From Escherichia coli (lineage in GTDB: Bacteria > Pseudomonadota > Gammaproteobacteria > Enterobacterales > Enterobacteriaceae): DNA of 64,000 nt. The stretch is from NCBI RefSeq assembly GCF_002854065.1, contig NZ_CP024147.1. The stretch is one strand, 5' to 3'. The stretch's first letter is position 1, and each line of letters begins with the position of its first letter. A program made the position numbers. Of the stretch, positions 51,001 through 57,000 are shown piece by piece.

Positions 51001-54000
51001 ATAGTCAGTCTTTTTCTCGGCGGCGAGTTGGTGCTCCAGCCGGGAAATTCGGTCAGAAAGTGCGGCGATTTCCGGGTCAGTCGCTTTCTCCTGCGACGCA
51101 ACATGTGACTGCATACCCCAGCCACGCTCCGGTTGATAGAGCGTCGCCCAGATCCACAGAAACGGCCAGATAACATGCAGAGTAAACAGGCTCACCCAGC
51201 CCGCCGTATGAATAGCGTCGGCATGGGGATGGTTGCGCTTTTTGGCAATCAGATAAGGGATGTCATGTATCGCGATGATTCCATAAAAAATCACCAGAAA
51301 GACGAAGATCAGCACTCCCAACGCGAAATAGTTTAGAAACATATTTGCCTCGGATTCACGTTTATCAGTGTTGTTTTTTGGCTGGCAGCCAGAAGGGAGT
51401 CAGGCTGATATTTTGACAATAATCCGGGTTCGCGATTCTCGCCATAACACCAAAGAATAATTTTTAGAGGTGATGAGTTGCTTAGTTACATAACGATTGT
51501 ATGACGAAGGCATAACATGCTGTAGATCACATCAGGTGAACGCCGTAAGAAAATATCTTGTGATTCAGATCACAAAGATTCAACAAACCATCAAAACAAA
51601 AATGTGACATTAGTCACATTTAAATGCCATTTTTAGCGAAAATCGCCGCCTTGTTGCTTTTTTACACAAGCGTTTTGTGATGAACATCACGTCAATTACC
51701 TCTCTACCCCCTATATTTATGTGATTGATATCACACAAAAGGCCGTCGACTGGACAGTTAACCGATTCAGTGCCAGATTTCGCAGTATCTACAAGGTCCG
51801 GCTACCTCTGCCGCCACATTAACAAAAAACCTCGGGCTTCCAGCCTGCGCGACAGCAAACATAAGAAGGGGTGTTTTTATGTCATCCGATATTAAGATCA
51901 AAGTGCAAAGCTTTGGTCGTTTCCTCAGCAACATGGTGATGCCAAATATCGGCGCGTTTATCGCGTGGGGTATCATCACCGCGTTATTTATTCCAACAGG
52001 GTGGTTACCGAACGAGACGCTGGCGAAGCTGGTCGGGCCGATGATCACTTATCTCCTGCCGCTGCTGATCGGTTATACCGGTGGTAAGCTGGTAGGCGGC
52101 GAACGTGGCGGCGTAGTCGGTGCCATCACCACCATGGGCGTTATCGTCGGCGCAGACATGCCGATGTTCCTCGGTTCTATGATTGCAGGTCCGCTGGGCG
52201 GCTGGTGCATTAAGCACTTCGACCGCTGGGTAGACGGTAAGATCAAATCCGGTTTTGAGATGCTGGTGAATAACTTCTCCGCAGGCATCATCGGGATGAT
52301 CCTCGCCATTCTGGCATTTCTCGGCATTGGCCCGATTGTTGAAGCCCTGTCCAAAATGCTGGCTGCGGGCGTTAACTTCATGGTTGTCCATGACATGCTG
52401 CCGCTGGCGTCTATCTTTGTTGAACCGGCGAAAATCCTGTTCCTCAACAACGCCATTAACCACGGTATCTTCTCGCCGCTGGGTATTCAGCAGTCCCATG
52501 AACTGGGTAAATCCATATTCTTCCTGATTGAAGCTAACCCAGGTCCGGGTATGGGCGTGCTGCTGGCGTACATGTTCTTTGGTCGTGGTAGCGCTAAACA
52601 GTCTGCGGGCGGTGCGGCAATTATCCACTTCCTGGGTGGTATCCACGAAATTTACTTCCCGTATGTGTTGATGAATCCGCGTCTGATCCTGGCCGTTATC
52701 CTCGGCGGTATGACTGGCGTGTTCACGCTGACTATCCTGGGCGGTGGTCTGGTTTCTCCGGCATCTCCGGGTTCTATCCTTGCTGTACTGGCGATGACAC
52801 CAAAAGGTGCTTATTTCGCTAACATCGCGGGTGTGTGTGCGGCGATGGCTGTCTCCTTTGTTGTCTCTGCTATTTTGCTGAAAACCAGCAAAGTGAAAGA
52901 AGAAGATGATATTGAAGCAGCAACTCGTCGTATGCAGGACATGAAAGCTGAGTCTAAAGGTGCATCTCCGCTGTCTGCGGGCGATGTGACTAACGACCTG
53001 AGCCACGTACGTAAAATCATCGTTGCCTGTGACGCCGGTATGGGTTCAAGTGCGATGGGCGCAGGCGTGCTGCGTAAGAAAATTCAGGATGCAGGTCTGT
53101 CGCAGATTTCGGTCACTAACAGTGCGATCAACAACCTGCCGCCAGATGTGGACCTCGTCATCACTCACCGTGACCTGACCGAACGCGCTATGCGCCAGGT
53201 TCCGCAGGCACAGCATATTTCGCTGACCAACTTCCTCGACAGCGGCCTGTACACCAGCCTGACCGAACGTCTGGTTGCTGCCCAGCGCCATACTGAAAAC
53301 GAAGTGAAAGTGAAAGACAGTCTGAAAGACAGCTTTGACGATTCCAGTGCTAACCTGTTCAAACTGGGCGCGGAGAACATCTTCCTCGGTCGCAAAGCGG
53401 CCACCAAAGAAGAAGCGATTCGTTTTGCTGGCGAGCAGCTGGTGAAAGGCGGTTACGTTGAGCCGGAATACGTTCAGGCGATGCTGGATCGTGAAAAACT
53501 GACCCCGACTTATCTGGGTGAGTCTATCGCGGTGCCACACGGTACGGTTGAAGCGAAAGATCGCGTACTGAAAACGGGCGTGGTGTTCTGCCAGTACCCG
53601 GAAGGCGTGCGCTTCGGTGAAGAAGAAGATGACATTGCCCGTCTGGTGATTGGTATTGCTGCCCGTAACAACGAGCACATTCAGGTTATCACCAGCCTGA
53701 CCAATGCACTGGATGATGAGTCCGTCATCGAGCGTCTGGCACACACCACCAGCGTGGATGAAGTGCTGGAACTGCTGGCAGGTCATAAGTAATCCAATCC
53801 CACCCTCTCCACATGGAGAAGGTGGGGCTAATTGCCTAATGCGCTACGCTTATCAGGCCTACAGGATGCATCACAATTTGTTGAATTTGCACGTTCTTGT
53901 AGGCCGGATAAGGCGTTTACGCCGCATCCGGCGCGGCCCCTCTCCACATGGAGAGGGTTTGGGTGAGGGAAAAGCCTCACCCCAGCCCTCTCGGGTAAAA

Positions 54001-57000
54001 ACATTGATGAAGGTTAATACTATGAAAGCATTACATTTTGGCGCAGGTAATATCGGTCGTGGCTTTATCGGTAAACTGCTGGCAGACGCGGGTATACAAC
54101 TGACGTTTGCCGATGTCAATCAGGTGGTACTTGATGCCCTGAATGCCCGTCATAGCTATCAGGTTCATGTGGTAGGTGAAACCGAGCAGGTAGATACCGT
54201 TTCCGGCGTCAATGCTGTCAGCAGCATTGGTGATGATGTCGTTGATCTCATTGCTCAGGTTGATTTAGTCACTACCGCCGTTGGCCCGGTAGTGCTGGAA
54301 CGTATTGCTCCGGCTATCGCCAAAGGGCTGGTGAAACGTAAAGAACAAGGTAATGAATCTCCGCTGAACATCATCGCTTGTGAAAACATGGTCCGCGGCA
54401 CCACGCAACTGAAAGGCCATGTGATGAACGCCCTGCCGGAAGACGCCAAAGCGTGGGTAGAAGAACACGTTGGCTTTGTCGATTCCGCCGTTGACCGCAT
54501 CGTACCGCCTTCGGCTTCGGCAACTAACGATCCGCTGGAAGTGACGGTAGAAACCTTCAGCGAATGGATTGTCGATAAAACTCAGTTCAAAGGCGCACTG
54601 CCGAACATCCCAGGCATGGAGTTAACCGACAACCTGATGGCATTTGTCGAACGTAAACTCTTCACCCTGAACACGGGTCATGCTATAACCGCGTACCTCG
54701 GAAAACTGGCCGGTCATCAGACCATTCGTGACGCTATTCTCGACGAGAAAATCCGCGCGGTGGTAAAAGGTGCGATGGAAGAAAGTGGCGCGGTACTGAT
54801 CAAGCGTTACGGCTTTGACGCTGACAAGCATGCGGCGTACATCCAGAAAATCCTCGGTCGTTTTGAGAACCCGTATCTGAAAGATGATGTAGAGCGCGTA
54901 GGCCGTCAGCCGCTGCGTAAACTGAGCGCAGGCGACCGTCTGATCAAGCCACTGCTCGGTACGCTGGAATACGGCCTCCCGTACAAAAATCTGATTCAGG
55001 GAATTGCCGCTGCAATGCACTTCCGCAGTGAAGATGATCCACAGGCTCAGGAACTGGCAGCACTGATCGCCGACAAAGGTCCGCAGGCGTCGCTGGCACA
55101 GATTTCCGGGCTTGATGCCAACAGCGAGGTTGTATCTGAGGCGGTAACCGCTTATAAAGCAATGCAATAATGGTGGACCAGGCGCAGGACACCCTGCGCC
55201 CGAATAACAGATTGTCAGATATGCAGGCAACAATGGAACAAACCCAGGCCTTTGAAAACCGTGTGCTTGAGCGTCTGAATGCTGGCAAAACCGTGCGAAG
55301 CTTTCTGATCACCGCCGTCGAGCTCCTGACCGAGGCGGTAAATCTTCTGGTGCTTCAGGTATTCCGCAAAGACGATTACGCGGTGAAATATGCTGTAGAA
55401 CCGTTACTCGACGGCGATGGTCCGCTGGGCGATCTTTCTGTGCGTTTAAAACTCATTTACGGGTTGGGCGTCATTAACCGCCTGGAATACGAAGATGCGG
55501 AGCTGCTGATGGCATTGCGTGAAGAACTAAATCACGACGGCAACGAGTACGCCTTTACCGACGACGAGATCCTTGGACCCTTTGGTGAACTGCACTGCGT
55601 GGCGGCGTTACCACCGCCGCCACAGTTTGAACCAGCAGACTCCAGTTTGTATGCAATGCAAATTCAGCGCTATCAACAGGCTGTGCGATCAACAATGGTC
55701 CTTTCACTGACAGAGCTGATTTCCAAAATCAGCTTAAAAAAAGCCTTTCAAAAGTAAGCAACGTCTGCTTACTGCCCCTCTACCTGCTTCGGCCGATAAA
55801 GCCGACGATAATACTCCAGACGTTGTAGATATAACGGCACGCTTTCATCGGGTATTCCGGACGGAATCGCGTTACGGGGAGGAAGTTTTTTCAGATACTC
55901 CCGGAACGCCTGACTTGATGCCATGAAATCTACGGCTTTATCGATAAGAAGCGGAACGTTTTCACCTAATTTGCCCATGATGATATCTCCGTATTACCCC
56001 GCGCCGGGAATGCGCGGCCGCCAATTTTAGTTTAGGTTCCCGGTAAAGATGACATTAAGGAAAACGTGCTGAATCCTCAATAATCATCCGCTTCTGTTTA
56101 TTATCTTTTTTCTATAGATTTCTTAATTAATCAATAAATTGCGTAGTTTTTAAGCATATTAATGATTACGTTGCAGAACTATTGCAATGTCATCAGTTGT
56201 GAACAAAGCACCTGGTCGCGCATACTAGGGGCTATAAATTTATCTTTATCAGAAGCCATCACATGAAAGAAGTCGAAAAAAACGAAATCAAACGTCTCAG
56301 CGATCGTCTGGACGCCATCCGCCACCAGCAGGCCGATCTGTCGCTGGTTGAAGCCGCAGACAAATATGCCGAGCTGGAAAAAGAGAAAGCCACGCTGGAA
56401 GCAGAAATTGCCCGCCTGCGTGAAGTTCACAGCCAGAAACTGAGTAAAGAAGCACAGAAGCTGATGAAGATGCCGTTTCAGCGCGCAATTACCAAAAAAG
56501 AGCAGGCTGATATGGGCAAGCTGAAGAAAAGTGTTCGCGGACTGGTGGTTGTTCACCCAATGACCGCGCTGGGCCGCGAAATGGGCCTGGAAGAGATGAC
56601 CGGCTTCTCAAAGACCGCGTTTTAAGTCCCCTACTGGTCAATACAACTAAAGTTTCCTCATTTTTATTCGCTCCTGCTGGCACATGCAGGAGCATATTTC
56701 AGATATCGAAATCTATTAACATTATCTTTTCAATTCTTCCCACTCACCTGAATAATTTTAGCAGGTTAAAATCTGAAAATATGTTACGCAATAAAAGTTA
56801 ATATATAATTTACAGCTATAAATATCAGCATAAACATGCTTATATCATAACTATTTATTTATATTTTCCAACTCAAACCGTCCTTGTCATCATAAAACAT
56901 TCACCATATAAATATTATCCTTTGCCTTTTTCTCACCTTATCCCTTTAAAAATTTGACATCGATTGACACCAATCATTAGAATCCGCGCGATTAATATAA

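Follow-up and report, generated by a model that had tools for sequence, protein, structure and literature searches.

The subject of this analysis is the spacer between the genes mtlA and mtlD in a 64,000-nucleotide (nt) stretch of an Escherichia coli genome (contig NZ_CP024147.1 of NCBI RefSeq assembly GCF_002854065.1), to which we refer as the window. The spacer occupies positions 53793-54021 (229 nt) inside the mtlADR transcription unit and is 100% identical to its counterpart in E. coli XH990 and about 98% identical to that of K-12. The limits proposed for it in an initial annotation of this DNA, 53793..54021, proved to be exact, lying between the mtlA stop codon TAA (53790-53792) and the mtlD start codon ATG (54022). 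Our analysis suggests that the spacer is pieced together, as a mosaic, from two intergenic repeat families already known in enterobacteria, namely repetitive extragenic palindromic (REP) sequences, arranged as a bacterial interspersed mosaic element (BIME), and the BoxC/PIT/TMECO repeat; that the BoxC core is the part under selection; and that the whole would act as a decay barrier favoring mtlA. We assign this joint reading a probability of roughly 0.6. The components of the locus are given below in the order in which they occur.

51879..53792, plus strand: mtlA coding sequence (637 aa; stop TAA at 53790-53792), from the open reading frame (ORF) list and the annotation in matching E. coli records.

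53799..53826, plus strand: hairpin 1, CCCACCCTCTCCA/TGGAGAAGGTGGG, with 13-nt arms that are 92% complementary, starting 7 nt past the mtlA stop and predicted at -19.1 kcal/mol.

53834-53932: BIME-1, consisting of a y REP, a long L linker, and a z1 REP.

53834..53862, plus strand: y-type REP, inverted (iREP), ending in CTAC (53859-53862); the left half of the BIME-1, recognized by its match to the REP core.

53863..53898, unstranded: L linker of the BIME-1 (36 nt), which aligns with its counterpart in the BIME at 32189-32295.

About 53874-53887, minus strand: candidate site resembling the integration host factor (IHF) consensus, AATTCAACAAATTG, with one mismatch to WATCAANNNNTTR, the match being read by eye.

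53899..53932, plus strand: z1-type REP, GTAG (53899-53902) followed by the imperfect palindrome GCCGGATAAGGCGT/ACGCCGCATCCGGC; the right half of the BIME-1.

53938..53969, plus strand: BoxC/PIT/TMECO module, type-A-like, with blocks X, X', and Y (triad rule and match to the published sequence).

53938-53945, plus strand: pyrimidine block X, CCCTCTCC, followed by the loop ACAT.

53950-53957, plus strand: purine block X', GGAGAGGG, followed by the loop TTT; X and X' form hairpin 2 (53938-53957).

53961-53969, plus strand: mirror block Y, GGGTGAGGG.

53961-53982: hairpin 3, GGGTGAGG-GAAAAG-CCTCACCC, formed by Y and Y'.

53974..53992, minus strand: truncated and inverted second BoxC module, type-B-like, reading GAGAGGG-CTG-GGGTGAGGC on the minus strand and without the last arm (pattern match).

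53975-53983, in plus-strand reading: block Y', CCTCACCCC, followed by CAG.

53986-53992, in plus-strand reading: block X2, CCCTCTC.

53993..54021, plus strand: mtlD leader, GGGTAAAAACATTGATGAAGGTTAATACT; its Shine-Dalgarno sequence, GAAGG, lies at 54009-54013.

54022..55170, plus strand: mtlD coding sequence (382 aa; ATG at 54022), from the ORF list, the annotation in matching records, and orthologues.

55170-55757: mtlR, downstream of mtlD, the third gene of the mtlADR unit.

The initial annotation had seen the REP hairpins of this spacer, but the remaining hairpins went unrecognized, both as BoxC/PIT/TMECO elements and as the part conserved in evolution. Judged by their sequence, these non-REP hairpins represent the BoxC/PIT/TMECO "intrastrand triplex" repeat and not a new motif. 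The two CCCTCTCC-type hairpins that had been noticed are indeed there, at 53803-53822 with one mismatch (GGAGAAGG) and at 53938-53957 without any, where shuffled sequences would be expected to yield none, and two inverted REPs sit between them, as claimed. The first of the two is longer than had been stated, its 13-nt arms spanning 53799-53826. The GGGTGAGG...CCTCACCC hairpin is likewise present (53961-53982; 0.01 expected), but instead of bracketing the REPs it sits 3' of the second CCCTCTCC hairpin.

A TMECO is defined by three blocks in a row (pyrimidine, the complementary purine, and a G/T mirror sequence) that give the allowed triads G*G-C and A/T*A-T, with stems of at least 6 to 8 nt and short loops (PMC4666352). 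Read in this way, the core in the window contains eight perfect triads (CCCTCTCC / GGAGAGGG / GGGTGAGG), and 64 of the 66 orthologues show at least seven triads with at most one mismatch. The published consensus is CCCTCTCCC-N3-5-GGGAGAGGG-TTA/CCG-GGGTGAGGG (PMC4666352 Table 1); the E. coli mtl blocks agree with it at 8/9, 8/9, and 9/9 positions, with TTT as the loop, and several genera match type A exactly at mtl (e.g., Enterobacter soli, locus L029). Five K-12 TMECO pairs have been published in a head-to-head layout that combines a TTA/TTT-type with a CCG/CTG-type module (PMC4666352), and the mtl pair has the same layout as K-12 pair 1+2 after hrpB (hrpB-mrcB), where we verified it. The mtl copy itself was not found among the published 23 K-12 TMECOs (PMC4666352 Table 1; no "mtl" term occurs in the text and supplements checked). 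The kinship of the core with BoxC is visible only via the block pattern and the literature; the idea that the core is a dispersed repeat of high identity was discarded, as BLAST searches with the 65-nt core returned essentially one place per genome.

With MtlD as the probe, we gathered 80 loci from other species. The BoxC pair (about 60 nt) and the mtlD leader lie directly upstream of mtlD in all 71 Enterobacteriaceae loci (66 distinct sequences), in genera that include Escherichia, Citrobacter, Salmonella, Klebsiella, Enterobacter, Kosakonia, Cedecea, Buttiauxella, Mangrovibacter, Siccibacter, and Franconibacter. Outside Escherichia, the core retains a mean identity to E. coli of 92% (43 aligned columns) and the leader one of 82.5%; the corresponding figures for mtlD itself are 57% at third codon positions and 95% at first and second positions. 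Within E. coli, the core 65-mer is found at a coverage of at least 80% in 5,404 of 5,426 genomes. Both of the arms X and X2 are conserved, and the distance from the core to the mtlD start is roughly constant. The stretch between the mtlA stop and the core varies between genera, being filled by Salmonella/Citrobacter-type REPs, Klebsiella palindromes, ERIC elements, extra BoxC copies, or nothing at all. An ERIC/IRU-like insert (…GTGAATCCCCAGGAGC…GTGACTGGGGTGAGCGAGG…) occupies this slot, where E. coli holds the BIME, in two loci of Citrobacter werkmanii/youngae (L012 and L013, about 1281-1415) and in L052 (about 1272-1405).

The extra BoxC copies in mtl loci are lineage-specific, and even between strains of E. 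coli the usual TMECO locus is reported to differ (Holder et al. 2015, PMC4666352); on these grounds the mtl copy is unusually stable for its family. Extra canonical TMECO/BoxC copies, including inverted pairs, are seen downstream of mtlR in Enterobacter species (L025, L029, and L031, about 3680-3830), and further ones in L055 and L062 (about 1355-1376), in contrast to the fixed copy between mtlA and mtlD. BoxC is absent in 14 Pantoea-type spacers (L069-L073 and L077-L085, two of the records being titled Enterobacter), where one or two other GC-rich hairpins stand in place of the core. These include the direct-repeat hairpins GGGGCGGGCAAGCCCGTCCC and GGGGCGGATTTGCCCGCCC, which lie at a similar distance from mtlD (upstream of position 1501, or 822 in L078); Mixta (L085) has only one hairpin of this GC-rich type.

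The purine block X' of the core has two possible partners. Pairing with X, upstream, yields two hairpins, and pairing with X2, downstream, yields a single long hairpin of 18-19 bp in which X'-Y pairs with Y'-X2. Across the 66 orthologues, 91.5% of the cells of the long hairpin are paired, which clearly exceeds slid controls, and seven of its pairs have changed on both sides, the compensatory changes extending into the linker (TTC/GAA, CCA/TGG). One linker pair is represented by 43 U-G, indicating that G-U is tolerated on the sense strand, with comparable cases on the antisense strand. Covariation is also seen between the 5' arm X and the length of the hairpin 2 stem (8 to 11 bp). The two conformers are nearly isoenergetic in the 66 species, with a mean difference of -0.5 kcal/mol, a range of +/-5.9, and a split of 39 versus 27; bistability of this kind arises in part from the three-arm repeat layout itself. 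Neither conformer sequesters the mtlD Shine-Dalgarno sequence or forms a terminator.

The REP portion of the spacer conforms to a familiar element. A REP is a 30-40-nt imperfect palindrome with a GTAG/CTAC foot, and a BIME-1, which occurs singly, combines a y and a z1 unit in inverse orientation around a conserved L linker (PMC3333891). Both units in the spacer have such feet along with imperfect palindromes, and together with the 36-nt linker they can be aligned end to end with the BIME at 32189-32295. Their high-copy nature is evident in the REP core 14-mer, which has 8 matches in the 64 kb against 0.02 expected, and in the spacer query, for which the median number of matching places in an E. 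coli genome was 22. The L linker of BIME-1 often carries an IHF site (PMC3333891). Three further BIMEs occur in the window: a BIME-1 at 32189-32295 with a layout nearly identical to that of the mtl BIME-1, a REP pair with a short linker at 41340-41446, and a degenerate BIME-1 at 63149-63255. The last of these directly follows a 1,737-aa ORF (57898-63111, plus strand), which is repetitive, adhesin-like, and located downstream of mtlR. In K-12, TMECO pair 17+18 is found downstream of mtlD at a distance of about 8.6 kb, which would correspond to a place near window position 62600; the window lacks such a pair altogether, the strain differing from K-12 there.

Hairpin 1 occurs in E. coli and E. 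albertii and is absent in other genera and in the short E. coli alleles. It derives from the BoxC X-X' hairpin as a diverged duplicate specific to Escherichia. The GAAGGT hexamer of the mtlD ribosome-binding site (54009-54014) recurs in its 3' arm (53818-53823), probably by coincidence.

Within E. coli, spacer alleles of 94, 229, 318, 376, and 419 nt were found, the long ones holding four to six REPs, including z2 units, and the 94-nt ones being devoid of hairpin 1 and the BIME. The 135-nt difference between the 94- and 229-nt alleles equals the spacing of the 17-21-nt direct repeat that is formed by the two CCCTCTCC hairpins. We estimate the share of short alleles at about 15-20% of 5,426 genomes, based on an evenly spaced sample of 30 rows and 1,113 genomes with coverage below 80%. 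Hairpin 1 and the BIME are thus dispensable and cannot be essential. Two distinct short alleles exist, one with the hairpin 1 loop ACAT and the other with the hairpin 1 flank but the hairpin 2 loop TCAC, showing that the precise 135-bp deletion has recurred by recombination between the repeats. Furthermore, both loops are ACAT in the window, as against ACAT and TCAC in K-12, which points to conversion between the hairpin copies. The possibility that the short allele is ancestral was rejected, because the combinations of loop and flank in short alleles are those of recombinants of the long allele and because E. albertii has the long form. As E. albertii also possesses hairpin 1 and a BIME, both the duplication and the insertion are old within Escherichia. 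In sum, the direct repeats and REPs make the mtl spacer unstable. Small ORFs within the spacer (e.g., 53832-53966) were dismissed, as they span the polymorphic BIME. The flanking mtlA gene is annotated as a frameshifted pseudogene in one K-12 MG1655 assembly (L001, NZ_CP010440.1); this is probably an assembly error, because mtlA is intact in NC_000913.3.

Folding of the spacer as RNA bears out the expectation of stable structure in the initial annotation: the predicted energy of the whole is -107.5 kcal/mol, against -71.1 +/- 4.7 for shuffled versions (z = -7.7), with none of the 200 shuffles being as stable. The first stable hairpin begins at a median of 6 nt past the mtlA stop (interquartile range 4-7) in 83 of 86 related spacers. 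The lineages differ in the family that this hairpin belongs to (BoxC, REP-like, or others) but hold on to its position, and in Pantoea-type spacers the first hairpin lies at +13 to +22. No U-tract follows any spacer hairpin, T runs being lacking 3' of each, and a scan of 51500-56500 showed neither a terminator-like site on either strand nor an internal promoter in the spacer. An intrinsic terminator, defined as a GC-rich hairpin followed by a U run, was accordingly rejected as the identity of any part of the spacer. No Rfam 15 family reached its gathering score in 51000-57000; the sole hit with E < 1 was naRNA4 (RF02564) at 53902-53958, scoring 39.1 bits against a gathering score of 59.5, a match owed to generic REP similarity only. 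The spacer and the mtlA promoter region have no BoxC-like motif in common, on which ground an MtlR operator-like site in the spacer was rejected; the sole 9-10-mer that they share, ATTCAACAAA, lies inside the BIME linker. An RNA G-quadruplex from GGGAGAGGGTTAGGGTGAGGG was also considered; in E. coli it would have no more than GG as its first tract and would face competition from the complementary C-rich arm.

These observations can be brought together in the following scenario. An inverted BoxC pair (53938-53992), comprising one complete module and one without its last arm, would have been fixed upstream of mtlD before the Enterobacteriaceae diversified. In the Escherichia lineage, the left hairpin of this core would have been duplicated to give hairpin 1, with a BIME-1 coming to lie between the two copies. 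The polycistronic mRNA is predicted to fold into a series of GC-rich stem-loops that starts 7 nt past the mtlA stop; these would mainly block 3'-to-5' exonucleases, so that the mtlA segment outlives the mtlD-mtlR segment, and might in addition cause modest Rho-dependent or pausing attenuation, both effects tilting expression toward the transporter. Selection would act on the conserved BoxC core and not on the REPs, which together with hairpin 1 would constitute a strain-variable add-on. By analogy with other operons, the role of the spacer is most likely that of a decay barrier protecting mtlA mRNA, with possible weak Rho-dependent attenuation. The intercistronic REPs of malE-malF and hisJ-hisQ reportedly stabilize the upstream mRNA and partly attenuate readthrough, as described in the work of Newbury et al. 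of 1987 and Stern et al. of 1988. In the REP325 study, the element between yjdM and yjdN was a partial Rho-dependent terminator that also stabilized the upstream mRNA, and across the genome tandem gene pairs with a REP show expression biased to the upstream gene. The initial annotation had suggested an mRNA stabilizer or partial terminator biasing the mtlA:mtlD ratio. The high predicted stability, the REP precedents, and the placement of a hairpin near the mtlA stop are in keeping with this; the lack of a U-tract, the missing terminator activity reported for PIT/BoxC elements, and the loss of the REPs and hairpin 1 from about one-sixth of E. coli genomes speak against it.

Several points weigh against the decay-barrier reading. 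In earlier tests, PIT/BoxC elements acted neither as promoters nor as terminators, and no clear function emerged (Hoyne and Maher 2002, summarized in PMC4666352). The core being an inverted DNA repeat, counts of pairing cannot separate constraint at the RNA level from constraint at the DNA level, and the conservation of its stems could partly reflect homogenization among repeat copies rather than local selection. That expression is biased toward mtlA is an assumption based on the REP precedents. Finally, a 3'-end mapping dataset has no entry for the spacer, the mtl operon not being induced under those conditions.

One alternative reading holds that the REPs and BoxC are purely selfish or neutral, having gathered in a tolerant spacer with no effect on mtl expression. 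The loss of hairpin 1 and the BIME in about 15-20% of E. coli genomes and their expansion in others, the unrelated insertions at the same position in other genera (Salmonella/Citrobacter-type REPs, ERIC, and Klebsiella palindromes), and the failure to find a function for PIT/BoxC elements are all as expected on this account. However, it does not sit well with a core that is 92% identical across genera against 57% at synonymous sites, that is present in 71 of 71 Enterobacteriaceae loci, and whose nearby relatives are lineage-specific, just as typical TMECO loci vary within E. coli (PMC4666352); we therefore regard it as unlikely. A somewhat better case, though still a doubtful one, can be made for an effect at the DNA level, with BoxC forming a triplex or cruciform and BIME-1 binding IHF, so that the consequences would lie in topology, replication, or a recombination hotspot and any effects on RNA would be incidental. 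Stable triplexes have been obtained in vitro with TMECO oligonucleotides, and among E. coli strains the TMECO loci are prone to rearrangement (PMC4666352), as is the mtl locus; moreover, the triad rule holds in 64 of 66 orthologues and the L linker of BIME-1 usually has an IHF site. Against this, in vivo footprinting gave no support for a stable triplex (PMC4666352, discussion), and instability, while explaining the polymorphism, leaves the deep conservation of the core and its truncated partner unaccounted for. The tolerance of G-U on the sense strand of the long helix (e.g., 43 U-G at one linker pair) also counts against it, albeit with comparable antisense cases.

Among accounts centered on RNA, we consider it possible, and advance it only tentatively, that the truncated BoxC pair is a domesticated RNA element under purifying selection, a bistable stem-loop that sets mtlA/mtlD processing or stability or mtlD translation. 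The reading in which the core is a bistable cis-regulatory RNA whose X' switches between X and X2 to control mtlD translation, processing, or protein binding appears improbable. It would account for the near-equal energies of the conformers in 66 species, the conservation of X and X2, and the roughly constant distance to mtlD. Yet no conformer hides the Shine-Dalgarno sequence or makes a terminator, the bistability follows automatically from the repeat layout, and there is neither an Rfam family nor a known ligand or partner, nor a motif of the mtlA promoter that would suggest MtlR binding. A hairpin within about 15 nt of the mtlA stop might alternatively stall the terminating ribosome, leading to rescue by transfer-messenger RNA (tmRNA) and lower MtlA levels. 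Such stalling by REPs at stop codons, with tmRNA rescue, is said to have been proposed by Liang, Rudd and Deutscher in Mol Cell in 2015. The hairpin at +7 in the window and the median of +6 in 83 of 86 loci, which is kept across hairpin families, agree with the proposal; but such proximity may be typical of repeat insertions (the comparison comprises mtl loci only), the hairpins of Pantoea-type spacers start at +13 to +22, and on balance this mechanism too seems distinctly unlikely. By far the least probable reading is that of partial intrinsic (Rho-independent) termination between mtlA and mtlD. It could draw on several very stable GC-rich hairpins, but neither strand has a terminator-like site, no hairpin is followed by a U-tract, and PIT elements lack terminator activity.

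The kinds of element involved are already known, and the functional guess for the REPs is the textbook one. Literature searches on REPs in the mtl operon gave nothing usable, and neither the deep, position-specific conservation of the BoxC pair nor the natural allele series at mtl was found in the literature searched. REPs inside operons are a classic and still debated means of tuning relative expression without changing promoters or coding sequences, and BoxC/PIT/TMECO elements have been without an assigned function for 30 years. The mtl locus joins both families, offers natural alleles with and without REPs, and has a BoxC pair that is conserved like coding sequence throughout a bacterial family. 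If this conservation reflects function, mtlA-mtlD would be a simple system in which to address the role of BoxC, its core would be the first BoxC element with a demonstrable function, and the natural 94-, 229-, and 419-nt alleles would provide a ready test series for that function. Otherwise, the locus remains an example of the way in which such repeats give rise to indel polymorphism within operons.

Among known systems, the REP portion is closest to BIME-1 (also termed RIP or RIB when it carries an IHF site), with which it shares the CTAC/GTAG feet, the imperfect palindromes of about 30-35 nt, the inverse arrangement of y and z1 around a 36-nt linker, and membership of a multicopy family whose copy number differs among strains. 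Nothing essential sets it apart: the y unit here has one substitution (GCCTAATGCG for GCCTGATGCG), and other strains hold atypical or BIME-2-like expansions with z2 units at the mtl site. The HU-binding RNA naRNA4, derived from REP325, shares REP sequence with the spacer, its match at mtl being below the gathering score of the family; the role of naRNA4 in the nucleoid has itself been questioned by a 2026 preprint. With REP325 at yjdM-yjdN, and with the REPs of malE-malF and hisJ-hisQ, the spacer has in common stable palindromic repeats inside an operon and the placement of the more needed gene upstream. It differs in that its REPs are naturally dispensable and in that the conserved structure is a BoxC pair and not a REP. 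The closest relative of the core is the BoxC/PIT/TMECO family (Hoyne et al. 2000; Holder et al. 2015, PMC4666352), which is likewise intergenic and built of three blocks of nearly the same sequence (CCCTCTCC(C)-loop-(G)GGAGAGGG-TTT/TTA-GGGTGAGGG); in both cases the module stands head-to-head with an inverted type-B-like partner at a locus prone to rearrangement. The mtl copy departs from the family in being unlisted in the K-12 set, in the 8-nt blocks and TTT second loop of E. coli, and in a partner module that is without its last arm in all species examined. Above all, it is fixed at one position across the Enterobacteriaceae, unlike typical TMECO loci.

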